Shown piece by piece: positions 24,139 through 50,718 of a stretch of 64,000 nt of DNA. The notes under the pieces were generated by a model that saw only the letters and a program-made list of their open reading frames with translations, did not search any database and was not told the DNA's origin. The stretch covers positions 64,001 through 128,000 of IMG/VR virus record IMGVR_UViG_3300020469_000011; one strand, written 5' to 3'. This DNA comes from a virus. Position numbers and translations under genes: made by a program. The number at the start of each line of letters is the position of its first letter. Position 1 is the stretch's first letter.

Positions 24139-25132
24139 CGTCTGCAGTGTATATTTTTGTTTCCATTATGATAAGATTTATTTCATATGTTTGATGGTAA
24201 TATCCTTTTTCACCTTTTATAAATGATTCAACATCACCGCTTGACCCATAAAAAGTATTCAAATCTCTTACTACAAATGTATATGGAAAATTCATAAAGT
24301 ATCCAATTTTATCTTTTCCTTCTTCTATTTCAGAATTTCCTTTTATTCTTTCACAAATAGTTAATTTAATTTCATTTGGTATTTTAAATACTGAGCTAAA
24401 CCATTGACCCTGATTATCTTCAAAAAAAGTTTTATCAGTATATTTTTCTGTAACATCACCAAATATAGTGTTAGCAAAACCTAAATAATTAGTAGTGGCA
24501 TTAAATGCTCTTAAAGACTCTCTTCCTGCAGTATTAAGTACTGAGAAACTAGTATCCGATAGACTAGGTAATGATGATTTCTGTATTGCTTTTATTATTT
24601 TTTCTAGTTCTATAGCATCTTCTTCATTTTTAGGAGTTATCTTCCAATCTAAAGTAAATTCTCTTACCCTACTCACACCATCAAATAATAAAGTAAAATT
24701 CGGTGCTCTTGTTAGACCTAATCCTTGAGCACCTAACTTAAAGAATTTATTATCTGTCATCATGATTTCTTTTGACAAATAAGTATCAAAAGCGTTGTAT
24801 GCAGTTGTTGCTAAAGAACCAAGAGTATCCAAAGTAGAAGGTCCTGATGAACCAGAAGGACCTTCTGATGCTAAATTTTTTTTTCCACTCAAAACATTAC
24901 TTAGCGCATTTCTTACACCTTCATACTTATCTTTAACAAGTTCTCCAATAACCCCGAGTTCTCTCTGAGAATAATCTAATTGAAAATCTTCCCTTAATAA
25001 TCCTTTTGGCAATGGCAAATAAATAGTAGAAACAGATTTTTCTTTATCAACGGAAGATTCTATGATCTCTATTTTAAGAAAAAATCTCTGAAAATTCTCT
25101 ACATTTTTTGGAAAAAATATTTCTTCTGACAC
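24107..25132 (-). CDS. Second gp48/gp54-like tail-tube cap paralogue (GTG start)
   Basis: IYLPLP, PNFTLLFDGV..REFTLDWKITPKNEEDA, METKIYT; same motif layout as the neighbouring gene. Confidence 0.7.
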   Translation of the reverse strand: MSEEIFFPKNVENFQRFFLKIEIIESSVDKEKSVSTIYLPLPKGLLREDFQLDYSQRELGVIGELVKDKYEGVRNALSNVLSGKKNLASEGPSGSSGPSTLDTLGSLATTAYNAFDTYLSKEIMMTDNKFFKLGAQGLGLTRAPNFTLLFDGVSRVREFTLDWKITPKNEEDAIELEKIIKAIQKSSLPSLSDTSFSVLNTAGRESLRAFNATTNYLGFANTIFGDVTEKYTDKTFFEDNQGQWFSSVFKIPNEIKLTICERIKGNSEIEEGKDKIGYFMNFPYTFVVRDLNTFYGSSGDVESFIKGEKGYYHQTYEINLIIMETKIYTADDAENLQAHNG

Positions 25133-25143
25133 TCTATATACCT

Positions 25144-25581
25144 ATGAGAAAAAGCCGAAATTACAGACAGGGTAGATTTAAACCTAAGAATATAGCAAAA
25201 TATAAAGGAAACTCCGGTAATGTTATTTATCGTAGTTCTTGGGAAAAAAGAATAATGGCCTTCTTTGATGAATCCGCAAATGTAAAATGGTGGAACTCTG
25301 AAGGCTTAATAGTTCCATACTTTAATCCTATTGATAAAAAGATGCATTCTTATTTTCCAGATTTTGTTTTCATGAATAAAAATAACAAAGTATACATGAT
25401 AGAAGTAAAGCCTTACAAAGAAACATTACCACCTGTAAAGAAAGGTAGAAACTATAGGTCAGCAGCAATTACTTATGTTATCAATCAATCAAAATGGAAA
25501 CAAGCAATTGAATTTTGTGAAAAGCAAAATTGGCAATTTGTAGTTTGGACAGAAAAAGAAATGAAAAAAATGGGAATCTAG
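25144..25581 (+). CDS. gp4: Head completion nuclease gp4
   Basis: YRQGRFKPKNIAKYKG...YRSSWE...WNSE...YFPDF...IEVKP...NQSKW; ATG at 25144 is the likely start; divergent from the baseplate operon as in T4. Confidence 0.93.
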   Translation: MRKSRNYRQGRFKPKNIAKYKGNSGNVIYRSSWEKRIMAFFDESANVKWWNSEGLIVPYFNPIDKKMHSYFPDFVFMNKNNKVYMIEVKPYKETLPPVKKGRNYRSAAITYVINQSKWKQAIEFCEKQNWQFVVWTEKEMKKMGI

Positions 25582-25603
25582 TGAAGAAAACTTAATATAA
25601 TAC

Positions 25604-25632
25604 TTGACTTTTACTTAATTCTGTGTTACAAT
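25604..25632 (+). promoter_or_regulatory. Sigma70-type early promoter
   Basis: TTGACT-N17-TACAAT with extended TG, upstream of the SF2 helicase. Confidence 0.75.
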
Positions 25633-25666
25633 AGGTTTTATTAATAAATCTGTAACATGGAGTGAT

Positions 25667-27532
25667 ATGGAAAACTTTGAAATAAAAAGATATATTTCTG
25701 AACTTGACTCATCTGTATTTTTTTGTCACAATCATTACACATCACTAATTGATTCCCCAACAGGTTCCGGTAAAACAGAATTGATTTTTGAAAGATCTTT
25801 AGATACTCCTAAAATTATAATTGCCTTTCCTTATACATCTCAAGTTATACAACAACAAAAATTACATATTGACTATCAGTGTTTATATGATGATAATCAA
25901 TATGATGATTCCAAATCAAATAAAATAATTTGTACTTATGATAAGTTAGTAACTTTAATTAATCACGATCTAGATCTAAATGAATACGAATTGCATCTAG
26001 ATGAATGTCACAATTTATATGTCTCTTCCAACTATAGAGATCGTATAATGTATTATATTTCGCTTTCTATCAGAAATCGTAACTATAAAAAAGTGTTTTT
26101 GTATTCAAGTACCTATGACACAAAATATCTTAATAACTATTTAATTATTGATAAACATTTTAAGATAACATGCAAAGATAAGAATAAAGACGATATTACT
26201 TGTATCCACTTAGATAATAGTAGTAAAGTTACAATGAATGAATCTATACTTTATCATTTTCAATATAATGTTATGAACAATGAAAAGGTTTTGATTTATC
26301 GTAACAACAAAAGTGAGAATATTTCTCTAGGTAAATCATTAGAAGATATCGGATTTGATGTTTTAGTTGTAGATAGTGATAGTAAAAATGAAGAAGAAAT
26401 CATTGACCTTCTGAGAAATCAAGAGATATCAAATAAAACAAATGTACTAATTACAACATCAATACTAACTGAAGGTATAAACTTATTGAATAAAAATATA
26501 ACTCAGATTCATTATATTGATAAAAGTAAGAGCGCATCAACTATTAGGCAATTTACAAGTAGAGCAAGAAATCGAAAACATAAAACATTTGTGTGGTATA
26601 AAAAAGAAGAAAATTTTAATATAAAGAAAAATATATTTGAAGAGTGGTATGATTTTAATGAGAATGCAAAATCTCTAGAACAGAACTATAACTATATTGT
26701 ACAAACAACTGAAAGTAAACTAAGAAACAAACACATCAATCATATATTAAAAGCATCTACTTTTTATGATAGGAGTTGGAGACAATTTGGATATCGCAAT
26801 GTAAACAGCAGTATTAAAATAGATTACACAAGAATAGCGAATTACTTTTATGAATTAGATGTTAGCAATCAAAGTCATAATTCTTACATACTTGGTGAGG
26901 AATTAGAGAAGCATAACTTTGATGTTCATTATATGAATTATGAAATATTAATTGATAAGAACGATCAACTTAATTCCAAAATGAATTCAAGAACAGTTAA
27001 AGAAGAAAGAAAGGCAGATAAGATTCTTATATTACAAAATTATATAGATGAAAATACAAATGTAAAGAAAAGATTAATTGAGTTGTTGAGAAAGAAAAAT
27101 AAAGATTCTTTAGAAAATCGTGAAATAAAAATAGCAAGAGAATGGATACAACTTGAAAAAAATAATGTTAGTAAACAAGATATACTTGAAATTATTAAGA
27201 ATAATAATAGTCATAAAGCTAAATATAGGTTATCTTTAAAATATCAAATGCAAAACGATTTACTTTATAATGAACTTGTCAATCTTGTTGAGGTTAATAA
27301 AAGGTATGGTGTAGAAGAACGTAGTGATTTACTACTACAAGCGGATAAAAATATTTTATCCAAACACAAGATTGACCTAAATATAAAAAAGATGTCTGAC
27401 GGTAGCGTACATGGTAAAACAAGTAAAGGAATCTTCTCAAATTTATTTAACTTAAATACTCATGTATATAATGGTAAACACACAATTTCTATAAAAGATT
27501 TAGATCCTCTATTCTTTCAAACAACCAATTAA
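25667..27532 (+). CDS. Superfamily 2 (DExH) helicase, origin-binding-protein-like
   Basis: Walker A SPTGSGKT, DECH, motif III SST, motif V TTSILTEGIN, motif VI RQFTSRAR; GGAG SD. Confidence 0.8.
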   Translation: MENFEIKRYISELDSSVFFCHNHYTSLIDSPTGSGKTELIFERSLDTPKIIIAFPYTSQVIQQQKLHIDYQCLYDDNQYDDSKSNKIICTYDKLVTLINHDLDLNEYELHLDECHNLYVSSNYRDRIMYYISLSIRNRNYKKVFLYSSTYDTKYLNNYLIIDKHFKITCKDKNKDDITCIHLDNSSKVTMNESILYHFQYNVMNNEKVLIYRNNKSENISLGKSLEDIGFDVLVVDSDSKNEEEIIDLLRNQEISNKTNVLITTSILTEGINLLNKNITQIHYIDKSKSASTIRQFTSRARNRKHKTFVWYKKEENFNIKKNIFEEWYDFNENAKSLEQNYNYIVQTTESKLRNKHINHILKASTFYDRSWRQFGYRNVNSSIKIDYTRIANYFYELDVSNQSHNSYILGEELEKHNFDVHYMNYEILIDKNDQLNSKMNSRTVKEERKADKILILQNYIDENTNVKKRLIELLRKKNKDSLENREIKIAREWIQLEKNNVSKQDILEIIKNNNSHKAKYRLSLKYQMQNDLLYNELVNLVEVNKRYGVEERSDLLLQADKNILSKHKIDLNIKKMSDGSVHGKTSKGIFSNLFNLNTHVYNGKHTISIKDLDPLFFQTTN

Positions 27533-27538
27533 TAAAAT

Positions 27539-28072
27539 ATGAATCTAAACGAAGCTTTTGATTTTCATAAAAACAATAACGTACCTTATTGTTTTACTTT
27601 ATTTCAACCATACTCTTCTAGTTTTTATCACTTCTATGCTGAAGCAAGAACAAAAGAGTTTTGGCATATTGATGATAAAGAAATATTTGAAACTACTAAT
27701 TTAGGTGAATTTGATCATTATGAAGATAATTATGTTCCATTAGATTTGCCTATTCTTTGTGAATCAAGCACAGAGTATCAAGGAAAAAAAGTTGAATTGA
27801 ATAAACCAAAAAGAGGTGGTTCCAAGAAATATTATGTTTACACTAGAAATCCAGATACAAAAAAAGTAGTGAAAGTTTCTTTTGGTGCTGAAGGTGGAGG
27901 TCAAAATCTTAGAGTTAAGATTAATGATCCAGATGCTAGAAGAAATTTTGCTTCAAGACATGACTGTAAAAATAAAAAGGATAAGACTAAAGCTGGATAC
28001 TGGTCTTGTAGATTACCAAGGTATGCTTCTATGCTAGGCTTAGATGTTAAAAACCCAAACTCATTTTGGTAA
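27539..28072 (+). CDS. Conserved phage protein with basic C-terminal module (KVSFG...ARRNFASRHDC...AGYWSC)
   Basis: Motif pattern recurrent in large marine phages; function unknown. Confidence 0.7.
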   Translation: MNLNEAFDFHKNNNVPYCFTLFQPYSSSFYHFYAEARTKEFWHIDDKEIFETTNLGEFDHYEDNYVPLDLPILCESSTEYQGKKVELNKPKRGGSKKYYVYTRNPDTKKVVKVSFGAEGGGQNLRVKINDPDARRNFASRHDCKNKKDKTKAGYWSCRLPRYASMLGLDVKNPNSFW

Positions 28073-28087
28073 AAAAATAAATATGTT

Positions 28088-28354
28088 ATGAAACATTATG
28101 AACAAATTGATAACATAAGAACTATACATAATGATATAGAACACTTTGTTTGGCACAGAGATAAATACGATAGAGAAATTAATATTATCTCTGGTGAAAA
28201 TTGGTTTTTACAAATAGAACATGAATTGCCTAAAAGAATGAATGTTAGTCAGTGTATGTTTATTAAAAAAGAAGTCTGGCATCGTATCTTTTGTACGAGT
28301 GAAGACTTAGACAATGACTTGGTTATTGTCATTAAAGAACTTATAAAAGAATAG
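28088..28354 (+). CDS. Small cupin-like protein
   Basis: WHRD..DREI...W.LQ....P.......FI.K.VWHRI matches a cupin two-motif His pattern. Confidence 0.55.
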   Translation: MKHYEQIDNIRTIHNDIEHFVWHRDKYDREINIISGENWFLQIEHELPKRMNVSQCMFIKKEVWHRIFCTSEDLDNDLVIVIKELIKE

Positions 28355-28358
28355 AAAA

Positions 28359-29174
28359 ATGTTATCTTTTAATCAGTATCTTACCGAAAAGAAAAAGAAA
28401 AAGCCTTGTTGGGATGGTTATAAACAAGTTGGCATGAAGATGAAGAACGGAAAAAAAGTTCCAAATTGTGTACCTGTCAATGAAGATTTTGATGTTGACC
28501 CAAATGATAAATTAAAACCAGTACCCACTGTAGAAGAGATTACTAAAAAACATAATGTATCTACAGAAGAAGTTGAAAAGCAAATTAAAAAAGGTACTGA
28601 TATAGAGAAAGAGCATACAGAAGATACCGATACTGCTAAACAAATTGCACATGCACATATAGATGAAGCATTAGACTACTATGAAAAATTAGCTGATTGT
28701 GTTGAAGAAGAGTTTTTAGATGAAATGTATACTAAGCCTGGATTAAGAGAAAAAATTAAAAATAGAATTAAGGCGGGTAGTAAAGGTGGTAAACCAGGAC
28801 AATGGTCAGCCAGAAAGTCTCAGATGCTTGTACAGCAGTATGAAAAAGAAGGTGGTGGTTATAAATCTAAAGGAAGGTCAAAGAAGCAGAGAAACCTATC
28901 TAGATGGTCTAAAACAGATTGGAAAACGCATGACGATAAGCCATCAATACAGGGACAAAAACATGATGAAGTTGATGCATATCTTCCTAAAGCAGCAATT
29001 GCACACATGAAAAGAAAAGATAAAGAGAACGATACGAATTTATATTCTAAAATGACAAGTCAAAAAAGAAAAGCGGCTAAATCAAATGATCAACATGCCG
29101 ATTATTCTGATGATGTAAAGAAAGCAAGAAAAGCAGCAATCAAACATGCACATAGAAGTGTTAAGGGTAAGTAA
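28359..29174 (+). CDS. Modular putative internal head protein with capsid-targeting leader
   Basis: MLSFNQYLTE leader; modules PCWDGY..PNCVP, GTDIEKEHT..AKQIAHAH..DYY and YTKPGLRE..GGKPGQWSARK. Confidence 0.7.
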   Translation: MLSFNQYLTEKKKKKPCWDGYKQVGMKMKNGKKVPNCVPVNEDFDVDPNDKLKPVPTVEEITKKHNVSTEEVEKQIKKGTDIEKEHTEDTDTAKQIAHAHIDEALDYYEKLADCVEEEFLDEMYTKPGLREKIKNRIKAGSKGGKPGQWSARKSQMLVQQYEKEGGGYKSKGRSKKQRNLSRWSKTDWKTHDDKPSIQGQKHDEVDAYLPKAAIAHMKRKDKENDTNLYSKMTSQKRKAAKSNDQHADYSDDVKKARKAAIKHAHRSVKGK

Positions 29175-30421
29175 TGAAATCATTCAATCAATTTATAACT
29201 GAAAACAAAATTTTAAATGAAGGTGGTAACGCACCATTTATTAATCGTGAAACTGGAGAAAAATTGGGCGATGCTCAAAAAATAGATTTAAATAAGGTAA
29301 ACAGAACTAAATTAGCTAAAAGTTTACAGCTATTGTTTGCTCAGTTAAATAAGCTTTATGAAAAGAAACATGGTGAAAAATTATGGAATGATTTTAGTGT
29401 AATAGAAACGGGTCATGCATTCAATGGTTCTTCTGAACATTTCTTTAATAAAAATATATCTGATGCTAAATTTAAAAAACACAAGCCAATGGTAGGTGAT
29501 ATAGATGTAACTATACATAATGATGAAAAAGTAAAAATTCAAAAATTAAAACCTTTGTTCGATTTACTTTCTGAATTGGAAAACAAAAAAATAACAAATG
29601 AATTTGTATACAAAGGACAAAATAAGAAGCAACAGCAAGGACATCAGATTAATGCTATCTTTCAATTTCAGAATCCAAAGATAAATGTACAAGTTGACTT
29701 TGAAGGTGTTCACTATACAGAAGATCATAAACCTACACCATTTGCAAAGTTTGCACACAATTCATCTTGGGATGATATTGAACAAGGAATGAAAGGTGTT
29801 GGTCATAAACTGTTAATTCAGAATTTAGCAAGAGCATTATCAGAGATGAAAGATGTTGTAGTGTTAACTAAAACTTCTCCATCCGAACCACCAGAGGAGG
29901 TTAAAGTTTCTAAAGCAGCATCTTCAGATGCACCCACTAATTTAGCTTTCAGTGTTGATTTAGGAATAAGAGAAAAGTATGCTCCTGCTGTTGATTCAAA
30001 AGGCAAGCAAGTCTATGTCAATGGCAAGCCAGCATTTCGAGAATTGAAAACAGGAGACAGTAAGTATCACAAAGACATTGATGTGATTTACACAATGATC
30101 TTTAAGAAGAAACCTTCAGAGGATGGCGAGGATTTGAAAAAGTTTCACAGTTTCACTGGAACGTTGGAATTGCTCGAGTCGCATAAGGTAGAAGATGATG
30201 TCATTCGCACCATGTTCAAGTCACTGATAGAAAAAAGTCTATTTGGTAAAAATGCACAAGGTTTTGAAAAAAATAATCCAGAAGGTGACAAAAAAATTAA
30301 AATGTTGATTGTAGATATGTTAGTTAAAAAGTTTCCATATCTAAATCCTATCTTAAATGGATATGAAGAAGAAATAAAAACCTATTATAATAATTATAAA
30401 AAGGTAAAGGTTGACGCATGA
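29174..30421 (+). CDS. Pol-beta-superfamily nucleotidyltransferase with capsid-targeting leader
   Basis: MKSFNQFITE leader; FNGSS...VGDIDV and a distal VQVDFE form the hG[GS]..DhD..D triad. Confidence 0.7.
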   Translation: MKSFNQFITENKILNEGGNAPFINRETGEKLGDAQKIDLNKVNRTKLAKSLQLLFAQLNKLYEKKHGEKLWNDFSVIETGHAFNGSSEHFFNKNISDAKFKKHKPMVGDIDVTIHNDEKVKIQKLKPLFDLLSELENKKITNEFVYKGQNKKQQQGHQINAIFQFQNPKINVQVDFEGVHYTEDHKPTPFAKFAHNSSWDDIEQGMKGVGHKLLIQNLARALSEMKDVVVLTKTSPSEPPEEVKVSKAASSDAPTNLAFSVDLGIREKYAPAVDSKGKQVYVNGKPAFRELKTGDSKYHKDIDVIYTMIFKKKPSEDGEDLKKFHSFTGTLELLESHKVEDDVIRTMFKSLIEKSLFGKNAQGFEKNNPEGDKKIKMLIVDMLVKKFPYLNPILNGYEEEIKTYYNNYKKVKVDA

Positions 30422-32031
30422 TGTCTTTTAAAACATTTTCCCTTAGAGAAAATTATATTATTGAAGCCGCAGGTAATGCAATGCTTGATGTATCTATTAC
30501 AAATGCAGATAAAGCCTTCAAAAATAAAACAAAATTCTTTTACTATGTTGGAGATGATGAAAAATTATTAAGTGAAAAGGAATACTCAATAGAAGAAAAA
30601 TATGACGGCGTGAAGCTTACCTTATTTCGTAATGGAAAAGATTTTGATTCTAAAAACTTTGAAAATAATTGGGTTATAGCCTACAAAAATAGAAAATTAC
30701 ATCCAAGTGAATTTAAATCTACGTCTGCTGCAAATGTAAAACAAAAAGGTATTGGTGTTTCTCAGTATAAAATTATTGCAGATCATTTGAAAAAAATACA
30801 TAAGAGTTTAGATTCAATACCAAAGAATACAGAATTTTTTGTTGAATTTTTAATGCAAAAATCTACCTTAACTAGAACATATGAAAATAAACATGGTGTT
30901 GTGTTAATAGGATATTCACATAATGCTAAAGTAGATCAAGAAGACGATTTTCGTTTCTATACAAAAGAAACTAAATTAAATCAAAGTTTAAATCAAGAAT
31001 ATGCTAAGTTACTGAAATTAGATCTACCTCAAATATTATTTGAAGGAGGTGTTGGTTCTTTTGAAAATTTGAAAGAAGGTGCTTTAGATGATGAACTTAA
31101 AAAACTTCTAAGGAAAAATAAAACCAAAATTCAAGAATTTTACAAGTATAAAAAATGGGATGACTTATATGAATTAATCAAAACTATTTTTCTAGATGTG
31201 TCAAGTTTTTATGGTGGTGTGATGGAAGGAGTTGTACTAAAAGATATTAAACAAAAAACAATGTACAAATTTCTCCAAACAGACCAACATGATAAAGAGT
31301 TTCGTCAGAAGATAAAACAACAATATAAAATGGATGAAGATAAAGAAAAGGAATATTATAAAACTCTAGATAAACTTGCTAAAGATATTTTGAGTAAATT
31401 AGATTTGAGCAAAGAACACTCTGAAATAATGAGTGATTTATCAACTGCTGTTTACAAGAAAAAATTACCAAGAAATTTACATACCAAGAGAAACGATCAT
31501 CAAATAAAAGAAGATCTTCATTTAAAAGTAAAAGATGCATTTGAAAAAATGCTTAAAGGTTGGGGTGGTGTAGTAGGTAAATTTAGAATTGTTACTAAAG
31601 AACATGTAAACATGATAGACTATGCTCTTAAAAAATACAAAGGTGTTTCTGTAATGCTTGTTGCAGGCTCTAGAGATATTATGTTAGTTCAAGAGAATAT
31701 GAAAATTTTTAAAGAAATATTTAAAGACAAACCGGCAGAATTTTTTATAGCTAAGACCGGAAACATAATAAGATTAGAGCAACTTACTAGAAATCCTATT
31801 GTTGCTTATGTAGCTGGACCAGATAGAAAAGAAGATTATCAAAAACAAATTGAGGGTGCTAATAGCGATGCAGTTGTAGATGTTTATGATGGAGGAAAAA
31901 GAGATGAAATTTCTGCATCAAAAGCAGAAGAAGCTTTGATGGCAAATGATGTACAATCATTAAGAAAAATTGTACATCCAGTTGCTCTTAAAAATATTGA
32001 TAAATGGGAAAAATATTACAGTAAATTTTAA
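30418..32031 (+). CDS. Fusion of an ATP-dependent ligase-like (KxDG) domain and a HIGH-family cytidylyl/adenylyltransferase-like domain
   Basis: EEKYDG (motif I), FFVEFL (III), MEGVVLK (IV), YKF (V); C-terminal GKFRIVTKEH, VAGPDR, ISASKA. Confidence 0.65.
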   Translation: MMSFKTFSLRENYIIEAAGNAMLDVSITNADKAFKNKTKFFYYVGDDEKLLSEKEYSIEEKYDGVKLTLFRNGKDFDSKNFENNWVIAYKNRKLHPSEFKSTSAANVKQKGIGVSQYKIIADHLKKIHKSLDSIPKNTEFFVEFLMQKSTLTRTYENKHGVVLIGYSHNAKVDQEDDFRFYTKETKLNQSLNQEYAKLLKLDLPQILFEGGVGSFENLKEGALDDELKKLLRKNKTKIQEFYKYKKWDDLYELIKTIFLDVSSFYGGVMEGVVLKDIKQKTMYKFLQTDQHDKEFRQKIKQQYKMDEDKEKEYYKTLDKLAKDILSKLDLSKEHSEIMSDLSTAVYKKKLPRNLHTKRNDHQIKEDLHLKVKDAFEKMLKGWGGVVGKFRIVTKEHVNMIDYALKKYKGVSVMLVAGSRDIMLVQENMKIFKEIFKDKPAEFFIAKTGNIIRLEQLTRNPIVAYVAGPDRKEDYQKQIEGANSDAVVDVYDGGKRDEISASKAEEALMANDVQSLRKIVHPVALKNIDKWEKYYSKF

Positions 32032-32345
32032 TCAACTTGAGAAATTAATATATCATAATCCATAGTAATTTCAAATTGAAAGTTTTCATAAAAATTAAAT
32101 TGTATAATTCCATCATCTAACTTCATGAGAAATAGAAAAGTATATTTGTTGAAATAAGTTCTTCTGTTTTCGCTTGCATATTTAAAAAAGTATTCATCAA
32201 ATTCTGAATTGTCTATGCTATCGTAACCTTTCATTCTTATAACATTATCTTGATTAAAATATACATGAATTTCATTATCAACAAAATCTATCACATTAGC
32301 ATTAGAAAAATTAAATAGATGTTTATCAGATTCAACTAAAATCAT
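32028..32345 (-). CDS. Hypothetical protein (105 aa)
   Basis: GAGGAG SD upstream; TATAAATA on the minus strand at 32406-32413. Confidence 0.65.
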   Translation of the reverse strand: MILVESDKHLFNFSNANVIDFVDNEIHVYFNQDNVIRMKGYDSIDNSEFDEYFFKYASENRRTYFNKYTFLFLMKLDDGIIQFNFYENFQFEITMDYDILISQVD

Positions 32346-32390
32346 AATGGTTTCTCCTCAACATGAGTAAAGTCAATTAAAAATTAATAA

Positions 32391-32413
32391 CTAAATATAG
32401 TTAAGTATTTATA
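32391..32413. promoter_or_regulatory. Face-to-face late promoter motifs (CTAAATA on plus; TATAAATA on minus)
   Basis: Intergenic region between divergent genes; matches the T4 late consensus. Confidence 0.5.
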
Positions 32414-32439
32414 TTCAAAAAATGAGGAAATAAAGATAT

Positions 32440-33273
32440 ATGGCAAGACTACAATCTATTCAAAAACCTACCACCCTGCTTACTTTAAAGTTCTCAAAAA
32501 CAGAAGCAAATGCATTTTCAGGTGCTGCCGGTGAAATTATATTAATTACAATAAATGGTATCATTCAAGGTGATGTTAGAATTTCAACAGGAAATCCTAA
32601 CTATACGATGCCAGTATATCCTATAGGTTCTCTCGTTTATTACGCCGGACAGACTCCTCCAAATGGATATTTATTCTGCAATGGAGCAACAGTATCAAGT
32701 AGTCTATATCCAGAATTGTATAGTAAAATAGGAACAACTTGGGGAGGAGATAGTACAAATTTTGCTTTACCCAATTTTACAACAGATGGTGGAAGATTTA
32801 TTAGAAATTTAAATCAACAAGGTGTTGGTAATTCAACATTTCCAGATTATTACTATACAAGTTATGATGATTATGGGACGTATAATAGATTTACTGCCAA
32901 TCTACAGTTAGTAAATAGAACATTCGGACAGTTTCAATCTGATGCATATGGATATCATTCTCATGGCAAACCATCAAATTCAGAATATGCAGGAGATCAT
33001 AGTCACAATTACTATGGGTCTAGAAATGCAACAAATGGTGTGCAATTAGGTAGTGACACTGCTGGAGTTAATGGATATAGAGGAGTGTTTGGATATGGGT
33101 CTGCAGCAACAACAGTTTCTTCCGGATATCATGTACATTATGGATGGTTGGGGTATGGACCAAATCAAAGTTCAACTTTACATAATACTGTTGATGCTGC
33201 TAATAGTTCTTTAAATAATCAAGGTGAGACAAGACCTGTAAATCATCCACTAATGTTCTGTATAAAATACTAA
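32440..33273 (+). CDS. Tail-collar-domain fibre protein 1
   Basis: PIGSLVYYAGQTPPNGYLFCNGATVSSSLYPELY..IGTTWG..FALPN collar domain; HxH motifs; ends ETRPVNHPLMFCIKY. Confidence 0.88.
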   Translation: MARLQSIQKPTTLLTLKFSKTEANAFSGAAGEIILITINGIIQGDVRISTGNPNYTMPVYPIGSLVYYAGQTPPNGYLFCNGATVSSSLYPELYSKIGTTWGGDSTNFALPNFTTDGGRFIRNLNQQGVGNSTFPDYYYTSYDDYGTYNRFTANLQLVNRTFGQFQSDAYGYHSHGKPSNSEYAGDHSHNYYGSRNATNGVQLGSDTAGVNGYRGVFGYGSAATTVSSGYHVHYGWLGYGPNQSSTLHNTVDAANSSLNNQGETRPVNHPLMFCIKY

Positions 33274-33286
33274 AGGATTATATAAA

Positions 33287-34105
33287 ATGCCGCTACAAGG
33301 AATTAGTTCTGGAGTTTTTAAATTTTCAACTACTACTCAAAATAGAGCAAGAACTTCCATACCAGGAACGATGGCTATTTCTGTAGATGATAATAATACT
33401 ATAACAGGTGATTTTAGAGTTCATGACGGACTTACTCCTGGAGGTATTTCAAATCCACCTCCTGGTACTGTCTCGCATATAATCTCAAAATATGATAGTA
33501 ATTTTACAGATAATATTTCAGAACCAGATGGTTGGTTTTTCTGTGATGGTAGAGAAGTTGTGATAGCAGAATATAATGCATTATATCAAGCGATTGGTAC
33601 ACATTGGAATGAAGGAACCGTAACAAGTGGTTCATATAAAATACCTGATCTTAGAAATCATTATATAAGATGTACTACAGGCGCTGTTGGTCTTTCACAA
33701 AAACAAGATAGTGTTATTGAAAAACATTCTCATTGGATGTTATGGGATGGAGCAGGAAGTCATACTCATACATATACACCATATCAAGATGGTAATTATG
33801 CACCTAATGTGTATGCTTTATATATTAGACATACTAATGATGTTTCCGGATCAGATTCAGGTTATTATGATAATACTGGTATAAAGAATCAACCAGTATA
33901 TAATACACCGGGAGCATATACATATCATTGGGGAGGCAGCTATGGAGGTCCTGGACCAACTTATATTACAATGGGCTATGGTTCATCTTTACCTGCTAAT
34001 GGTAGTAGTGCTCTTGAACACCATCATCAAGTCTCTCTTACTAATGCAGGTAGTTCTGAAGTAGATTTATATCATGTTAAATTATCAACATTTATAAAGT
34101 ATTAA
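33287..34105 (+). CDS. Tail-collar-domain fibre protein 2
   Basis: RVHDGLTPGG N-terminal motif; PDGWFFCDGR...YNALYQAIG...IPDLR; HxH motifs; ends FIKY. Confidence 0.88.
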   Translation: MPLQGISSGVFKFSTTTQNRARTSIPGTMAISVDDNNTITGDFRVHDGLTPGGISNPPPGTVSHIISKYDSNFTDNISEPDGWFFCDGREVVIAEYNALYQAIGTHWNEGTVTSGSYKIPDLRNHYIRCTTGAVGLSQKQDSVIEKHSHWMLWDGAGSHTHTYTPYQDGNYAPNVYALYIRHTNDVSGSDSGYYDNTGIKNQPVYNTPGAYTYHWGGSYGGPGPTYITMGYGSSLPANGSSALEHHHQVSLTNAGSSEVDLYHVKLSTFIKY

Positions 34106-34107
34106 AA

Positions 34108-35367
34108 ATGGCAGACAATTATTTTTCGAATAGAATATCAATAGATGAAAGAAAACTTGATGTAAATGATGATTCTTCAAATTTTGACATCACTTCTAGT
34201 AATTATAGTACATTTATCGGTGACGTAGGAATACAAAGATTAAAAGGATTAGCTGTTACTAAACTAGATGTTAATACATTACCCACCGATGGTAATGATA
34301 CATTTCCTACAAACAAAGGAACTTTCGCTGTTTTAGAATCTGGAAATAATAATTATACAGGTCAAATAAGAATTCTAGATGGTGGTGTAACAAGAACTGG
34401 TAAACCTGTTCCTCATGTTGGGACTTTAGGCTATTTTGCGTACAATGGTATTCCAGATGGTTGGTTAGAATGTAATGGAGCATTTATATTATATGCAAAA
34501 AATGCAGGATCTGGAACTTTTAAAGATACTGAATTTACTGAACTATACAATGTTCTTAATACATGGACAAGTGCAAATTCTGACACTGCAGTTACCACAC
34601 AACCTATCTCTACAGGAAATGCTTTTAAGTTACCTGATTTTAGGGGATTTTTTATCAGATGTTCGAATACTGGAGAAGTACCACAAACAAAATACAACAC
34701 TAGTAATTATAAAAATCATTCTCACAATGGAGCTTCTCTTTATAGTAGTCATTCTGGAGGAAGTCCTGAAGTTGGAACTTACGGTTTTGCTAGATTTGCT
34801 TTCTCAGGAGATCATGGAAGTGATCAAGATTATAGTAATCCGATGAATGGGATGGATGGTTATGAATATAATTATTATCATTTAAATGCTGAAAGAGGTT
34901 CTTGGTCTGGTAGATATAATTATTCTTATTCACATCAGTATGGTTGGGCCCAAACTTACACTTATTCAGGCTGGCAAGGCGACATATATACTCACGGAAC
35001 AGGTGGCGGCCGTGCTGGTGGTACATATGGTTCTAATCCAGAAAATATATACTCATTTGATAGGCATTTACATCCTCAGATGAGAACATGGCAAAGAAAT
35101 AGTGATTACGGACCCTTGCATGGATATACATCTAATCCATTTCAAGGTGCAGAAAATTATCAAGGCTGGTGGTATTGGCCTGCTCATATTGCACTTTCAA
35201 ATGCTGGAACTCCCGCAGGCTCAGAACTATTAAATTCTGGTTATGATGGAGATAGGACATCAACTGCGGGTAGTCACCGACATGGAATTAATGTAGGACC
35301 TAGTTACAGAGGTGAAACTGAAACAAGAGCAACTAATATTGCTTTGAAAATTTGTATAAAATACTGA
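34108..35367 (+). CDS. Tail-collar-domain fibre protein 3
   Basis: PDGWLECNG...FKLPDFRGFFIR; HxH motifs; ends ETRATNIALKICIKY. Confidence 0.88.
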   Translation: MADNYFSNRISIDERKLDVNDDSSNFDITSSNYSTFIGDVGIQRLKGLAVTKLDVNTLPTDGNDTFPTNKGTFAVLESGNNNYTGQIRILDGGVTRTGKPVPHVGTLGYFAYNGIPDGWLECNGAFILYAKNAGSGTFKDTEFTELYNVLNTWTSANSDTAVTTQPISTGNAFKLPDFRGFFIRCSNTGEVPQTKYNTSNYKNHSHNGASLYSSHSGGSPEVGTYGFARFAFSGDHGSDQDYSNPMNGMDGYEYNYYHLNAERGSWSGRYNYSYSHQYGWAQTYTYSGWQGDIYTHGTGGGRAGGTYGSNPENIYSFDRHLHPQMRTWQRNSDYGPLHGYTSNPFQGAENYQGWWYWPAHIALSNAGTPAGSELLNSGYDGDRTSTAGSHRHGINVGPSYRGETETRATNIALKICIKY

Positions 35368-38539: not shown

Positions 38540-39407
38540 AGCTAAAATTGTTCAGGATAGTTCTTTACCTACTGGAGAAAGAGTTTTGACTTTCTCTGCA
38601 ATGTATGGTAGATTAATTCATTCTGAACTTCTTAGACACCGTGCTGCATCTCATTCAGTGAAAAGTTCTCGAGCGATACCCACTAAAAAATATCGAGAAG
38701 AAGTTAAACAAAACATTTATGTCCCAGTTAAATTTGGCACAAAAAAGAGAGGAATGCAAGCAGGTGAACCTACCTTTTTAAGTAAATTTTATGGAGAAAG
38801 AGTATGGAGACTTTCTTCAAAATTTGCATGTTTGTTCCATTGGATGATGGAAAAATTAGATATACATAAGGAAGTAGCTAATCGTATTTTAGAACCATAT
38901 GTGTGGGTTGAAGAAACAATTACTGTTGAAGCTGATGCTTTAAAAGAAATAGCCGAACTTAGAATTCATGATGATGCACAAGAAGATGTTCGTAAAATCG
39001 TTGAAGAAATGTTATATGAAATGGATAAAAGCACACCTGTTAAATTAAAAGAAGGACAATGGCATGTTCCTTATGTTGTGAGAAAAATTACAGATAATGG
39101 GATAATATATACAGATAATAATGGCAAAAATTTAACATTGGATGAGGCTATTGTTTGCTCTGCTGCTAGATCCGCTAGAAGTTCTTACGCTAATCATGAT
39201 AATAGTATGTCTGTACTTGAAAAGGATATTAAACTTGCTAAACAATTAATTGGTTCTAAACCAATGCACTTGTCACCGTTTGAACATCAAGCAAGACCAT
39301 TTAAAGATGATCTTGAAAAGAATCAATATGGTTCTAATCTTCGTCATTTCTTTCAGCAAAGAAAGGCAATTGAAAATTCATTATGGCACTACGAAATCAA
39401 TTCATGA
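38532..39407 (+). CDS. thyX: Flavin-dependent thymidylate synthase
   Basis: ELLRHRAASHSVKSSRAIP (RHRx7S motif), KEVANRILEP, HLSPFEH. Confidence 0.88.
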   Translation: MIKAKIVQDSSLPTGERVLTFSAMYGRLIHSELLRHRAASHSVKSSRAIPTKKYREEVKQNIYVPVKFGTKKRGMQAGEPTFLSKFYGERVWRLSSKFACLFHWMMEKLDIHKEVANRILEPYVWVEETITVEADALKEIAELRIHDDAQEDVRKIVEEMLYEMDKSTPVKLKEGQWHVPYVVRKITDNGIIYTDNNGKNLTLDEAIVCSAARSARSSYANHDNSMSVLEKDIKLAKQLIGSKPMHLSPFEHQARPFKDDLEKNQYGSNLRHFFQQRKAIENSLWHYEINS

Positions 39408-40711
39408 AACCTGGCGAAATAACATTTCGCCAAAGACTAGAAGCTAATTGGAAATCACCAAACGAAAATATATTAAAGTATATTGAAAATACAGTAGATG
39501 AACGGGGGTTTCCAAATATTCCAAATTGGAAAAGTTATAAAGAAGGAAAAGATGAATTAGAGTTATATTCAGCTTTAATGTATTTTTTATTAAATGCAAA
39601 ATTATCTTTACCTAATGCAAATGAACCTGAACATAGTGTTCGTAAGTTATTCTTTAAATTTAAAAATAATACTATTGCTCCTTTTGTTCATCATTATGAC
39701 TTAGACAAACCATTAATCCATCGTTTATCTGGCAGTAGAAATACACAATATATTCATGATTATGATGATTGGAGTATGGGGTTCTTTCCTCAACATATAA
39801 CAGCAAATAAAATTTCTAATTATTTTGCTGAAAATGAGAGAATGCAATGTGAAATAACTAATCGTGAAAGTCCTACATTTTTGTGGACTACTGAACACGG
39901 TATGTCTAGATTAATGGATTGTATTCGTAGAGTTGGTATTGATGTTTTAAATGAGAAAAAATTAAAAAAAGCTTTTGGATATGCTGGTCAAGTTGCAGCC
40001 CAGTTCAATGTAAATACATCTAAAAATATTTATAATATAGTTCCAGGAAAAACAATATTTGATATATCAAGTGGTTGGGGGGATAGATTAACAGGCTTCT
40101 ATCTATCTAATAAAAAAACATATATAGGAACTGATCCAAATTTAAGTATGTATGAAATCTATAAAAAGATGTCTTACACATATGAAAAATGGTTAGGAAA
40201 CGATAATCCTAAAATAACAGAACATGATAATTATTTTGAACTTAAAGGTGTGAAAAATGTTAGAATTTATTGTTTACCTGCCGAAGATATTGATTATGAT
40301 CAAATTCCAAATATTGATCTTACTTTTTCATCTCCGCCATATTTTAATAAAGAACTATATGGTAAAGATTCTGAAAATGAAGATAGTCAATCATGGAAAA
40401 GATATGATACAGATGACAAATGGTTAACAAATTTTTTATATGTGATACTAGATAATCTCATTCCAAAATCAAAAATTACTATGATAAACATCACAGATGT
40501 TGGAACTGATGTTAGAGATAATCGTAAATGTATTTGTGACCCAATGGTAGAGAGATATAAAAATAAATTTGTAGGAATCACAGGATTTCAATTATCACAA
40601 AACATGAACATCGTCAGATATTTAACTGGTCATTACACTGAACCGATTTGGACCTTTGGTGAAAATTTCTTACAAGAAAATAAAGTAAATTTAATGGAAT
40701 TATTTAATTAG
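39383..40711 (+). CDS. DNA amino-methyltransferase (m4C/m6A type)
   Basis: SAM-binding FDISSGWGDRL, YIGTDPN, catalytic FSSPPYF. Confidence 0.8.
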   Translation: MALRNQFMKPGEITFRQRLEANWKSPNENILKYIENTVDERGFPNIPNWKSYKEGKDELELYSALMYFLLNAKLSLPNANEPEHSVRKLFFKFKNNTIAPFVHHYDLDKPLIHRLSGSRNTQYIHDYDDWSMGFFPQHITANKISNYFAENERMQCEITNRESPTFLWTTEHGMSRLMDCIRRVGIDVLNEKKLKKAFGYAGQVAAQFNVNTSKNIYNIVPGKTIFDISSGWGDRLTGFYLSNKKTYIGTDPNLSMYEIYKKMSYTYEKWLGNDNPKITEHDNYFELKGVKNVRIYCLPAEDIDYDQIPNIDLTFSSPPYFNKELYGKDSENEDSQSWKRYDTDDKWLTNFLYVILDNLIPKSKITMINITDVGTDVRDNRKCICDPMVERYKNKFVGITGFQLSQNMNIVRYLTGHYTEPIWTFGENFLQENKVNLMELFN

Positions 40712-41242: not shown

Positions 41243-42973
41243 ATGAATAAATTACTTATCTTTGACTATGGAAGTCAGTATACACATTTGATTTCCAAGA
41301 GATTTAGAAAACTTGGTTACTACACTGAAATATGTCAACCCGATATAGATTTACAATTAATATCTGCTAACGGTATTATTTTATCTGGAGGTCCTGGAAG
41401 TACAAATGCAAATAATGATTTAAATACTAATATATTTGATTTGAATATTCCAATATTAGGTATATGTTATGGTCATCAGTTAATAGCTTCCTACTTCAAA
41501 GGCACAGTAAAATCAAATACTAATGTGGAATTTGGAAAAGCAAACCTAACAAAATGTGAAGATAGTCTTCTTTTTAAAAGATTACCAAATACATTTCAAG
41601 TTTGGATGAGTCATCATGATACTATAACTTCTTTACCTGAGCAGTTTAAAGTTATAGGTAAAACAGAAACTCCTTCTGCAATTGAGCATAAACATAAAAA
41701 GATCTATTCATTACAATTTCATCCAGAAGTTAATGATACAAACTTTGGTTCAATAATATTAGATAATTTTGCCAAAATATGTAACATTGAAAATAATTGG
41801 AATACTAAAAACTTTACTGAATCTAGTATTAAAAATATTAAAGAAGAAGTAAAAGACCGTAATGTACTCATGTTTCTGAGTGGAGGTGTAGATTCTAGTG
41901 TTGCATTTTCTTTACTCAACGAGTCTCTGGGGTCTGAACGTGTATTAGGTCTTTTTATAGATAACGGATTTTTAAGAACAAATGAAGCTAAAATAATTTT
42001 AGAAAAATACAATTCTTTAGGTTATGATAATATAATATTTCGTGACTATAGTATTAAATTTTTAGAAGCTATAAAAAATATTACAGACCCAGAAGAGAAG
42101 CGCAAGTCTGTAGGAGAAACTTTTCTAAAAGTTAGAGAAGAATTTTTAGATGAATTAAATTTAAATACTGATGATTGGTTATTGGGACAAGGTACTTTAT
42201 ATCCAGATATTATTGAATCGGGTGGTTCAAAAAATTCACATGTGATCAAATCACATCACAACAGAGTAGATGCTGTAAAAAAATATATTGATAAAGGTTT
42301 GATAATTGAACCGCTAAAGGAATTATATAAAGATGAAGTTCGTATTCTTGGAGCTTTATTAGGACTCCCAAAACAAATAGTACAAAGACATCCATTTCCA
42401 GGTCCAGGTCTTTCCATTAATGTAATTTGTTCTGATTCAATTTCTGAACAAACTAGTGAATTTTTACCAATAAAAAGTGTTGGTGTGCAAGGTGATCAAA
42501 GAACTTATAAATCTCCAAAGGTCATTCATAATAAAGCTGATTGGGATACATTAGAAAAATTAAGTATTGAACATACTAATAAGGTAGATGGGAGCAATAG
42601 AGTTGTTTTACATTTATCTAAAAGTGAAATTAAACATAATGGTTGGATTAGAAAAATTGCGTATTGCACAGAAGAAAGATTAAATATTCTCAGAAAAGCA
42701 GAAACTATAGTCTCTGAGAGTCTAGAAAAAAATAATTGGATGATAAAACTTTTTCAAGTATTAGTTATTCTTTTACCAATTAGTGAAAATGGGAAAAAAG
42801 AAAGTATTGTGATAAGACCAGTGGTATCAGAAGATGTGATGACTGCACAATTTGCTAAAATTGATTGGGATGTCATAGAAGAAATTGTAGATAAATTGTA
42901 TAAGATGCCGAATATAGATTCGGTCTTTTATGATATTACACATAAACCTCCAGCGACTTTTGGGTGGGAATAA
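41243..42973 (+). CDS. guaA: GMP synthase (glutamine-hydrolysing)
   Basis: DYGSQYT, LGICYGHQ, QFHPEV, LSGGVDSS, QGTLYPDIIES, IKSHHN, RHPFPGPGL, KPPATFGWE. Confidence 0.95.
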   Translation: MNKLLIFDYGSQYTHLISKRFRKLGYYTEICQPDIDLQLISANGIILSGGPGSTNANNDLNTNIFDLNIPILGICYGHQLIASYFKGTVKSNTNVEFGKANLTKCEDSLLFKRLPNTFQVWMSHHDTITSLPEQFKVIGKTETPSAIEHKHKKIYSLQFHPEVNDTNFGSIILDNFAKICNIENNWNTKNFTESSIKNIKEEVKDRNVLMFLSGGVDSSVAFSLLNESLGSERVLGLFIDNGFLRTNEAKIILEKYNSLGYDNIIFRDYSIKFLEAIKNITDPEEKRKSVGETFLKVREEFLDELNLNTDDWLLGQGTLYPDIIESGGSKNSHVIKSHHNRVDAVKKYIDKGLIIEPLKELYKDEVRILGALLGLPKQIVQRHPFPGPGLSINVICSDSISEQTSEFLPIKSVGVQGDQRTYKSPKVIHNKADWDTLEKLSIEHTNKVDGSNRVVLHLSKSEIKHNGWIRKIAYCTEERLNILRKAETIVSESLEKNNWMIKLFQVLVILLPISENGKKESIVIRPVVSEDVMTAQFAKIDWDVIEEIVDKLYKMPNIDSVFYDITHKPPATFGWE

Positions 42974-48967: not shown

Positions 48968-49492
48968 ATGAAAAAAACATACAATCAATTTGTAGAAAGT
49001 ATTCTTTTAGAAAAAAAGAAAAAGAATAAAAAAGAACCAGATAGTGATCTTTTTTTAGATAATGAAGAAGAAGAGGAAGAAGAACCTACTGATGAAGAAG
49101 AATCTACTGATGAAGAAGAATCTGAAGATACTGAAGAGGATACTCCAGAAGAAGGTGAGGAAGATGAGCCAGAACCAAAAGAGGATGAAAAAGAATACGA
49201 TCCTGATGACGAAGAAAAAGTTAAGACTTCAAAACAAGATACTGAGAAAAAAGCTTTAAAAAACGTATCAACTGACGTAGAAGATAGTGATATGGAAAGT
49301 GATGAAATTGAAGACAAAATTGATGATGAAATAGAGTATTTAGAAACTGATAAAGAAAGAAATGAAAAATTATCTTATAAAGATAAAAAAGAAGAAGAAG
49401 AAAAACAGAAAAAAGAAAAACAAGATAAAGAAGATAATAAAACTAAAATCGTTATCAATCCTAACATCACAGAACATTTAAATAACTGGTAA
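48968..49492 (+). CDS. Highly acidic low-complexity protein with capsid-targeting-like leader
   Basis: MKKTYNQFVE..LLE leader; E/D-rich; 18-nt tandem repeat around 49086-49121. Confidence 0.75.
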   Translation: MKKTYNQFVESILLEKKKKNKKEPDSDLFLDNEEEEEEEPTDEEESTDEEESEDTEEDTPEEGEEDEPEPKEDEKEYDPDDEEKVKTSKQDTEKKALKNVSTDVEDSDMESDEIEDKIDDEIEYLETDKERNEKLSYKDKKEEEEKQKKEKQDKEDNKTKIVINPNITEHLNNW

Positions 49493-50701: not shown

Positions 50702-50718
50702 TATGATAAATCTTTGTT

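Follow-up and report, generated by a model that had tools for sequence, protein, structure and literature searches.

Adjacent genes of a marine T4-like phage encode a predicted head-packaged nucleotidyltransferase and RNA ligase-adenylyltransferase

Background

Could a phage head, whose recognized cargo includes small anti-restriction proteins, ADP-ribosyltransferases and RNA polymerases, also carry enzymes for mending broken polynucleotides? This question is raised by two adjacent genes, here called ORF1 and ORF2 (ORF, open reading frame), found at 29174-32031 in a stretch of 64,000 nucleotides (positions 64,001 to 128,000 of the IMG/VR virus record IMGVR_UViG_3300020469_000011; this whole stretch is referred to below as the window). 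The window comes from an IMG/VR viral contig of 146.5 kb, that of an uncultured marine T4-like phage, with a G+C content of about 30% and a CheckV completeness estimate of 68%. A first-pass annotation, made without database searches, had described the pair as translationally coupled genes for a Pol-beta nucleotidyltransferase (NTase) and for an ATP-dependent ligase fused to a HIGH-like adenylyltransferase, both with leaders like those of the T4 internal proteins (IPs). We report here that conserved motifs and predicted structures support these enzyme assignments and specify the ligase as an RNA ligase, that the leaders fit a T4-type head-targeting propeptide, and that homologues of both proteins have been detected in the virions of a cultured phage. 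The explanation that we favour, to which we give a probability of about 0.5 as a whole chain, is a head-delivered RNA repair unit that adds nucleotides and then seals.

Results

The reading frames were found where the first-pass annotation had placed them, and the stop codon of ORF1 and the start codon of ORF2 overlap as ATGA. The features to which the text refers are the following (residue numbers are those of each product).

28359..29174, + strand: ORF0, 271 aa, leader MLSFNQYLTE; Pfam DUF5661 (E 1e-7); isoelectric point (pI) 9.4
29174..30421, + strand: ORF1, 415 aa, Pol-beta-superfamily NTase (phrog_19290); Pol X-like palm and thumb, C-terminal helical domain
29174..29221, + strand: ORF1 propeptide, residues 1-16, MKSFNQFITENKILNE; resembles a T4 capsid-targeting sequence (CTS); predicted cuts after ITE10 and LNE16, predicted mature N-terminus GGN
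29426..29704, + strand: ORF1 catalytic core; G85-S86 at 29426-29431, D109-I-D111 at 29498-29506, Q173-V-D175-F-E177 at 29690-29704
30418..32031, + strand: ORF2, 537 aa, predicted RNA ligase and HIGH-superfamily adenylyltransferase fusion (phrog_27149)
30418..30465, + strand: ORF2 propeptide, residues 1-16, MMSFKTFSLRENYIIE; CTS-like, Glu16 invariant
30478..31305, + strand: ORF2 ligase nucleotidyltransferase domain, residues ~21-296; motif I K61-Y-D-G64 at 30598-30609; E139, E270-G271, K284
31306-31551, + strand: ORF2 helical linker domain, residues 297-378
31552..32028, + strand: ORF2 NMNAT/PPAT-like adenylyltransferase domain, residues 379-537; G387-KFRIVTKE-H396 at 31576-31605, I498-SAS at 31909-31920

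An alignment of ORF1 with 36 homologues (down to 32% identity) disclosed three groups of invariant columns, G85-S86, G108-D109-x-D111 and Q173-x-D175-F176-E177, and the protein thus carries the Pol-beta signature, that is, hG[GS], then two aspartates (DxD) on the following strand, and one further acidic residue (D175, in QxDFE). Its AlphaFold2 (AF2) model had a predicted local distance difference test score (pLDDT) of 90.4 and fell below 50 only at residues 1-16 and in the last three residues. When this model was compared with known structures, Foldseek recovered Pol lambda and Pol beta (E ~1e-3 over ~275 columns), and the top matches given by a Foldseek-independent aligner (VIA) were likewise Pol X enzymes: Pol beta (Z 8.0, 187 residues aligned), Pol mu (7.8), TdT (7.4) and Pol X of African swine fever virus (ASFV; Z 7.5, root-mean-square deviation (rmsd) 3.6, 170/176 residues aligned across palm and thumb), although Z values of 7.5-8 are modest, or "middling" on the scale of this aligner. 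The next matches in a list ranging overall from Z 5.5 to 8.0 were OAS and cGAS-like receptors (Z 6.4-7.5), TUTases and poly(A) polymerase, and covered the catalytic core only. The model has no counterpart to the N-terminal domains of Pol beta (8-kDa and fingers HhH), the aligned chain ranges beginning at about residue 131. At the sequence level, ORF1 matched no family of Pfam or NCBIfam at E up to 1 and nothing significant among the PDB sequences, and a profile of its family brought up no Pol X in PDB, the sole match being due to chance. We therefore class ORF1 as an NTase of the Pol-beta superfamily whose palm and thumb are Pol X-like, and not as a member of family X, and the Pol-beta triad noted in the first-pass annotation is confirmed. 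We also considered whether ORF1 could be RlaP, and rejected it: PF10127 matched neither ORF1 nor any other part of the contig at E up to 0.1, and control genomes did match.

A profile search of 1.84 billion representatives yielded 766 relatives of ORF1, of which 693 had E values of 1e-10 or below. The family representatives (clusters at 50% identity) were almost all viral and annotated as hypothetical, and a language-model atlas likewise placed ORF1 among viral clusters, one of which is named 'nucleotidyltransferase family protein'. The carriers are T4-like phages of marine bacteria, Vibrio and Campylobacter. In a few giant proteins of 1200-2078 aa (P0207, P0210, P0212/P0218 and P0229), an ORF1-type NTase starting M-GGN stands at the beginning and is continued by Amidoligase_2, a second NTP_transf_2 domain and DUF6934; these look like injected polyvalent proteins built on the ORF1-type NTase.

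In ORF2, both sets of catalytic residues were invariant among 24 homologues (down to 31% identity): those of the ligase, K61-x-D63-G64 (motif I), E139 (III), E270-G271 (IV) and K284 (V), and those of the adenylyltransferase, G387-K388-F389-R390, T393, H396 and S499-A500. The AF2 model (pLDDT 86.7, with residues 1-25 below 50) placed the ligase domain closest to T4 Rnl2 (Foldseek E 8e-7) and to fungal Trl1 (2.5e-5), with weaker matches to the Naegleria RNA ligase and REL1; by VIA the order was Rnl2 (Z 9.7), NgrRnl (9.6), REL1 (9.3) and Trl1 (8.7), and a Prochlorococcus DNA ligase came within ~1 Z of these RNA ligases. An all-helical segment (about residues 293-380) takes the place of the oligonucleotide-binding (OB) fold of DNA ligases. 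We consider the domain to be an Rnl2/Trl1-type RNA ligase, for which lysine adenylylation and the sealing of 3'-OH/5'-phosphate ends are predicted from sequence and model. The ligase motifs listed in the first-pass annotation stand, and it is the generic (DNA) ligase label that has to be replaced.

The C-terminal part of ORF2 (residues 379-537) matched small adenylyltransferases of the HIGH superfamily very closely, first of all the NMNAT of M. jannaschii (VIA Z 16.8, rmsd 2.1, 148/164 residues aligned), followed by PPAT (Z 15.7), NadM (14.6-14.9) and NadR (13.3), so that the HIGH-like domain recognized in the first-pass annotation is well supported by both motifs and fold. By sequence, the profile of the ORF2 family matched PPAT (E 2.6e-4). 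The segment T393-K-E-H396 answers to the T-x-G-H form that the HIGH motif has in PPAT, a threonine in the first position being the PPAT variant; in ORF2, a glutamate occupies the position of the xGH glycine. ORF2 itself found nothing significant in Pfam, NCBIfam or the PDB sequences, and a tblastn search of the contig with T4 Rnl2 was also negative. Its relatives gave weak to passing matches to PF09414, PF01467 and PF08218: for PF09414 (RNA_ligase), which does not match ORF2, relatives scored 21-22 bits, under the cut-off of 27, and P0008 and P0010 carry precomputed matches; for PF01467 (CTP_transf_like), which does not match ORF2 either, L025 (24.5 bits) and L029 (25.0 bits) pass the cut-off of 21. 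All three folds, NTase, ligase and HIGH, were recovered in structure comparisons of confident models (pLDDT 90.4 and 86.7), and their catalytic residues did not vary in the 36 and 24 homologues aligned.

The linkage of the two genes was studied in 29 IMG/VR viral loci found with the ORF2 profile. In 26 of these, a homologue of ORF1 lay within ~2.5 kb of the ORF2 homologue (identities 25-65%), which agrees with the co-occurrence expected from the first-pass annotation. Moreover, the three domains are also found within single proteins, in the order ligase-HIGH-NTase in four loci (L036, L037, L039 and L040; 954-958 aa) and in the order NTase-ligase-HIGH in P0170 (892 aa) and P0159 (1180 aa), and the occurrence of fusions in either order argues strongly for a joint action of the three activities. 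The wider neighbourhood adds other enzymes. A P-loop kinase gene adjoins the ligase gene in five loci (for example, L021 6762-7298), and P0026 and P0053 are fusions of a similar kinase domain with both families; the kinases of L021 and P0053 had the kinase domain of bacterial Pnkp as their best named match (E 4e-4), and searches of PDB sequences with the neighbouring kinase gave only weak adenylate-kinase matches. In P0076 and P0077, an ORF1-type domain is fused to a CCA-adding-enzyme domain (E 8e-23).

We then compared the N-termini with those of T4. Reading the T4 record directly, we found that IPIII and IPII begin MKTYQEFIAE, and IPI begins MKTFKEFTSTTTPVSTITE (MKTFKEF...). In the 10-residue T4 tag, targeting is encoded at positions 4 and 7 and processing at positions 8 and 10 (PMC9026906). 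The leaders of ORF1 (MKSFNQFITE), ORF0 (MLSFNQYLTE) and ORF2 (MMSFKTFSLRE) all have aromatic residues at positions 4 and 7 plus (I/L)xE. A T4-like leader followed by [LIV]xE was present in 9 of the 133 contig ORFs of at least 100 aa, when the internal frequency of the pattern predicts 0.12, and a looser leader pattern raised the number to 10 (Poisson P ~1e-16). In both models, the leaders are the sole N-terminal parts of low confidence.

Besides ORF0 (28359-29174), leader-bearing genes were found in the window at 48968-49492, 60113-61111 (- strand) and 61108-62718 (- strand), and, in genome coordinates, at 50672-51142 (- strand), 140416-142833, 143941-144258 and 144255-144872 (L009, L011). Among at least nine otherwise unrelated genes, the leader varies as MKSFHSFITE, MKSFKEVVNE, MKKFKEFISE, MKTFNQFLIE and MISFSNFCTNFLIE; such sharing suggests a large set of head cargo. 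Searches of Pfam with the other leader-bearing proteins gave no informative family, except a GP88 domain in an 805-aa protein.

To locate the predicted cleavage site, we used 187 representatives of the ORF1 family with G[GS]N near the N-terminus. Of these, 78 begin M-GGN and 98 have a leader of at least 8 residues, and in the latter the residues before GGN are Glu at P1 (91/98) and Leu or Ile at P3 (92/98), even though the rest of the leader diverges widely. In other words, (L/I)xE directly before GGN is the cut motif of T4 gp21 set at the predicted start of the folded protein, so that processed forms and leaderless forms (after removal of the Met) would share the same GGN end. Consistent with this, E16-G17-G18-N19 is conserved in the 36 ORF1 homologues, the leaderless homologue of Vibrio phage Va1 starts M-GGN with stop codons upstream, and the leaderless ORF2 homologues of CP220 and Va1 begin a few residues before a conserved LD(I/V)SI. 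The conserved cut is thus predicted after Glu16 in both proteins, LNE|GGN in ORF1 and IIE|AAG in ORF2, and ITE10 and LRE11 are candidates for additional upstream cuts. Accordingly, the resemblance of the leaders to those of T4 internal proteins, proposed in the first-pass annotation, held in the direct comparison with the T4 record and in both counts given above; of its proposal of cutting at (I/L)xE, the motif is retained and the conserved site is placed at Glu16.

Homologues of both proteins (~33% identical) are encoded in the same 21 records of cultured phages, 15 of Campylobacter and 6 of Vibrio; the former include CP220, CPt10, CP21 and IBB_35 and belong to Firehammervirus where taxonomy was checked. 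The virion proteome of vB_CcoM-IBB_35 comprises 38 proteins identified by electrospray ionization tandem mass spectrometry (PMC3322345), and we mapped its gene numbers through the coordinate table of that paper and the GenBank record. Gene 1-56 (39251-40417, 44,446 Da) corresponds to the ORF1 homologue and was detected in virions with 17% coverage, and genes 2-25 and 2-24 correspond to the ORF2 homologue in two pieces, with 2.9% and 23.7% coverage, respectively (PMC3322345); the authors took the three genes for hypothetical ones with no homologues (PMC3322345). The two pieces are annotated as separate genes in L003 (HM246721.1 23855-25289), and, since CP220 has a single gene of 503 aa, the split probably reflects a homopolymer frameshift from 454 sequencing. 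The ORF1 and ORF2 homologues lie ~65 kb apart in the genome of CP220, a close relative, and each was independently detected in IBB_35 virions. These detections are indirect but independent support for packaging.

The gene neighbourhood of the relatives points the same way: Peptidase_S77 (gp21) was the commonest conserved neighbour (8 loci), with the Gp23 major capsid protein next (6 loci), and S77 is encoded in 3 of 5 larger related contigs. On the basis of these data, it is very probable that ORF1 and ORF2 are packaged into the head, as the first-pass annotation had proposed; the IBB_35 detections support this indirectly in a relative, and for this phage both packaging and cleavage are predicted from its sequence.

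As to the surroundings of the module, the contig encodes replication genes of T4 type (gp43 polymerase, UvsX, gp41, gp61 and NrdAB) as well as tail genes, recovered in PHROG scans of 20 large ORFs, and a megablast search of the locus against phages gave no match. The module lies between the following genes.

28088..28354, + strand: 88-aa ORF, first of a tightly packed string of four genes; synteny with L018 and L019
32028..32345, - strand: 105-aa ORF with no family match, convergent with ORF2; kept beside the module in 10 loci

The 88-aa ORF ends 4 nt 5' of ORF0, and ORF0 and ORF1 overlap as TAATG; together with the ORF1/ORF2 overlap, this means that the three leader-bearing genes are coupled. 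Their products are all basic (pI 9.0-9.5), the predicted mature masses being 45.5 kDa for ORF1 and 60.6 kDa for ORF2, and ORF0 is probably an internal head protein. Directly 3' of the module, at 32440-35367 (+ strand), there are three tandem paralogous genes of 277, 272 and 419 aa, rich in Gly, Ser, Tyr and His, each product ending -IKY. They recur in 10 related loci and probably encode proteins of tail-fibre or collar type. The sequence ATAAATA occurs within 60 nt 5' of 10 of the 133 contig ORFs (~1.7 expected) and is likely the late-promoter core of the NATAAATA type. A AATAAATA box at 28076-28083, only 5 nt 5' of the 28088 ATG, is a possible T4-type late promoter, weak evidence to which we give little weight. 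Exact TATAAATA late promoters showed no enrichment, their number being below the chance count in this AT-rich window, and scans of 25000-33000 for sigma-70 promoters and terminators did not rise above shuffles.

Farther downstream, at 41243-42973 (+ strand), lies a phage GMP synthase (GATase, NAD_synthase-like ATP-PPase and GMP_synt_C). In PHROGs, relatives of this gene bear the potentially misleading labels 'NAD synthetase' or glutamine amidotransferase, and a link to NAD synthesis through this match was rejected, as GATase plus GMP_synt_C define a GMP synthase.

Discussion

We infer the processing and packaging in this phage, the ejection, the order of the reactions and the substrate as follows. 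A T4-type capsid-targeting propeptide would take ORF1 and ORF2, probably with ORF0, into the prohead core as head cargo, where a prohead protease of gp21 type would cut after Glu16 to leave mature ends GGN... and AAGN.... The basic mature enzymes would then lie with the DNA and, by analogy with the T4 IPs and Alt, would probably be ejected alongside it (PMC3012670, PMC9026906). In the host, the Pol X-like NTase would add missing nucleotides at the 3'-OH end of a broken polynucleotide, and the Rnl2-type ligase, adenylylated on Lys61, would seal the 3'-OH/5'-phosphate break. The likeliest substrate would be RNA, for example tRNA cut and trimmed by host ribonucleases, and the NMNAT/PPAT-like domain would make some AMP-phosphate-X product. 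We favour RNA repair because the ligase resembles RNA ligases, because relatives add a P-loop kinase and because P0076 and P0077 add a CCA-adding domain. In phages and bacteria, RNA ligases have been described as partnered by a Pol-beta NTase (RlaP), which replaces one or two lost nucleotides before the ends are joined (PMC7824862, PMC12776372).

Several points weigh against this explanation. The best folds for ORF1 are family X DNA polymerases, with modest Z values (7.5-8), and this would also fit a DNA substrate. Defences that cleave tRNA usually act late in infection, so that the benefit of packaging the repair enzymes beforehand is not evident. The NMNAT/PPAT-like third domain is left without explanation, and this is the main gap in the scheme. 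The Pnkp match of the neighbouring kinase is weak (E 4e-4) and far under the cut-off, and no match to the kinase (AAA_33), CCA enzyme (PolyA_pol) or RlaP families was obtained in the contig. As for packaging, the 146.5-kb contig (68% complete) showed no gp21 or gp23: tblastn with T4 gp21, gp22, gp23, gp24 and gp68 and a search with PF03420 found nothing in it, and the PHROG scans of 20 large ORFs brought up no head genes, which we read as incompleteness of the contig rather than as absence of these genes. Furthermore, the proteome of IBB_35 also lists an ExsB-like protein and other unlikely structural proteins, and one of the ORF2 fragments had 2.9% coverage. Finally, the ORF2 homologues of CP220/IBB_35 and Va1 are leaderless, and yet that of IBB_35 was found in virions, which means either that the tag is not the sole route into the head or that the proteome has contaminants.

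The main rival keeps the architecture and the packaging but takes the phage's own DNA as the substrate, the enzymes filling gaps or adding (ribo)nucleotides where the injected genome has nicks or ends and then sealing, to guard the genome at entry against defences that nick or cut it. It draws on the likeness of ORF1 to Pol beta, mu, lambda, TdT and ASFV Pol X across palm and thumb, on the Prochlorococcus DNA ligase being within ~1 Z of the RNA ligases and on the preference of Rnl2-like ligases for a 3'-ribonucleotide at the nick, and packaging makes most sense for a task at DNA entry, as with T4 IPI* (PMC3012670). However, the top matches of the ligase are all RNA ligases, a helical domain and no OB fold follows its NTase fold, and the CCA-adding domain and Pnkp-like kinase recruited by relatives point to RNA; moreover, some carriers already have a separate ATP-dependent DNA ligase (CP220 gp033, and L021 9184-10632, PF01068, a few kb downstream), and we regard this rival as unlikely. 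A broader proposal, which we hold as doubtful, is that the three enzymes, once injected, represent a new class of system that would act in the first seconds of infection, before phage genes are expressed, in one pathway not described so far that pre-empts nuclease defences; for instance, the NMNAT/PPAT-like domain might activate or cap a 5'-phosphate or supply a dinucleotide cofactor, the Pol X-like enzyme rebuild the 3' end and the ligase join the ends, the target being host tRNAs or the entering genome. The C-terminal domain has also to be considered from the side of small nucleotides, since its best structures are NMNATs (M. jannaschii, NadM and NadR): paired with the kinase of relatives, as in NadR, it could rebuild NAD+ or another dinucleotide, and the other enzymes could make or alter a nucleotide signal, blunting defences that deplete NAD or rely on signalling. 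The JGI name of P0026 ('predicted kinase/nicotinamide mononucleotide adenylyltransferase'), the OAS and cGAS-like receptors among the weaker matches of the ORF1 core and the known phage NAD salvage with HIGH NTases (PMC7824862) fit such a module, but an invariant Thr stands in place of the first His of H-x-G-H, as it does in PPAT, the family profile matches PPAT and not NMNAT, the best named match of the kinase is Pnkp, no NAPRTase or Nampt was found in the 146.5-kb contig (where 41243-42973 encodes a GMP synthase), and an RNA-ligase domain with all its motifs of covalent catalysis intact would have no role; we find it rather improbable.

A different kind of doubt concerns the packaging itself, for the proteins could be ordinary cytoplasmic repair enzymes, the shared N-terminus a lineage-specific feature of translation or stability and the virion detections carry-over. 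Many members are indeed leaderless (78/187 in the ORF1 family, and CP220 and Va1), the contig yielded no gp21, and the IBB_35 proteome was obtained from gel bands, the preparation being free of CsCl, and includes proteins that are likely non-structural. Against this stand the fit of the leaders to the experimentally mapped T4 positions for targeting and processing, the (L/I)xE immediately before GGN in >90% of leader-bearing relatives whatever the remaining leader, the place of the module beside gp21/gp23 in several lineages and the independent presence in IBB_35 virions of two proteins whose genes are ~65 kb apart in CP220, all of which makes a cytoplasmic role clearly improbable. Least probable of all is that ORF1 modifies proteins after injection, AMPylating or NMPylating host factors of defence or translation independently of the ligase. 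Pol-beta NTases in injected polyvalent proteins are predicted to modify proteins (PMC5512222), and ORF1-type domains do head the giant multidomain proteins P0207, P0210 and P0212, but ORF1 is obligately linked to the RNA ligase and repeatedly fused to it, and its likeness to polymerases in palm and thumb goes well past the minimal NTase core. Thus, among the roles suggested in the first-pass annotation, RNA end repair has gained support from the Pnkp-like kinase and the CCA-enzyme fusions, and NAD manipulation and protein NMPylation have gained none.

The add-and-seal unit that we favour can be set beside systems already known. Like T4 IPI, IPII, IPIII and Alt, the proteins are basic and have an N-terminal tag MK[ST][FY]xx[FY] followed by (L/I)xE, several unrelated genes of one genome share only this tag, the genes of relatives adjoin gp21/gp23 and homologues occur in virions; unlike them, the cargo here would consist of three nucleotidyl-transfer enzymes instead of small inhibitors or an ADP-ribosyltransferase, many relatives are tagless, and cleavage, packaging and ejection are here predicted. 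In the kinetoplastid editosome, nucleotides are added by a Pol-beta TUTase (RET2) before a ligase of the Rnl2 family seals. The N-terminal domain of ORF2 shares with T4 Rnl2 and REL1/REL2 the Rnl2/REL1 fold and motifs I, III, IV and V, but ORF2 has no detectable sequence similarity to Rnl2, is viral and not mitochondrial, and implies no guide RNA. The combination of a ligase with a minimal Pol X-like enzyme, reduced to palm and thumb, recalls ASFV Pol X with the ASFV ligase, or bacterial LigD, which a DNA-repair reading would resemble, whereas ORF1 lacks sequence-level membership in Pol X, and the ligase is of RNA type without an OB domain. The third domain is like archaeal/NadM-type NMNAT and bacterial PPAT (CoaD) in fold (Z 16.8 and 15.7) and in the motifs G-x-F-x-x-x-(H/T)-x-x-H and ISxS/T, and differs from them in being fused to an RNA ligase, in having T-K-E-H versus H-x-G-H or T-x-G-H, and in the lack of an NAD or CoA pathway context in the contig.

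A further parallel is repair by RlaP (PF10127) with Rnl1/Rnl2. There, too, a Pol-beta NTase and an ATP-dependent RNA ligase are genetically linked, a kinase and a CCA enzyme occur in the wider surroundings, and the logic is the same, restoring and then sealing; this partnership goes back to Burroughs and Aravind 2016 (cited in PMC7824862), and its biochemistry is given in PMC12776372. The first-pass annotation had known of no characterized system of such composition, a claim that has to be narrowed in view of these RNA ligase-RlaP pairs in phages. ORF1 differs from RlaP in having no PF10127 match and a Pol X-like palm and thumb, the ligase has the extra NMNAT/PPAT-like domain, and the proteins appear to be targeted to the capsid, unlike the cytoplasmic RlaP systems. 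We found no paper describing the module, and surveys of polyvalent proteins, jumbo phages and NAD-ADPr (ADP-ribose) make no mention of it. The packaging route and the repair logic are each of a known kind, and it is the combination, the NTase family and the ligase-adenylyltransferase fusion that are new.

Conclusions

The module offers a new family of ligase-associated NTases and an unexplained fusion of ligase and adenylyltransferase, and cultured carriers exist in the CP220/IBB_35 group and in Va1/phiTY18. The varied propeptides, all ending in (L/I)xE, provide a natural set for the study of head targeting and for engineering the delivery of proteins by phages. If the explanation favoured here is true, repair enzymes for polynucleotides, packaged as a kit, would add one more class to the cargo that phages inject, and some hosts would damage RNA or DNA so early that the repair enzymes must come with the genome.

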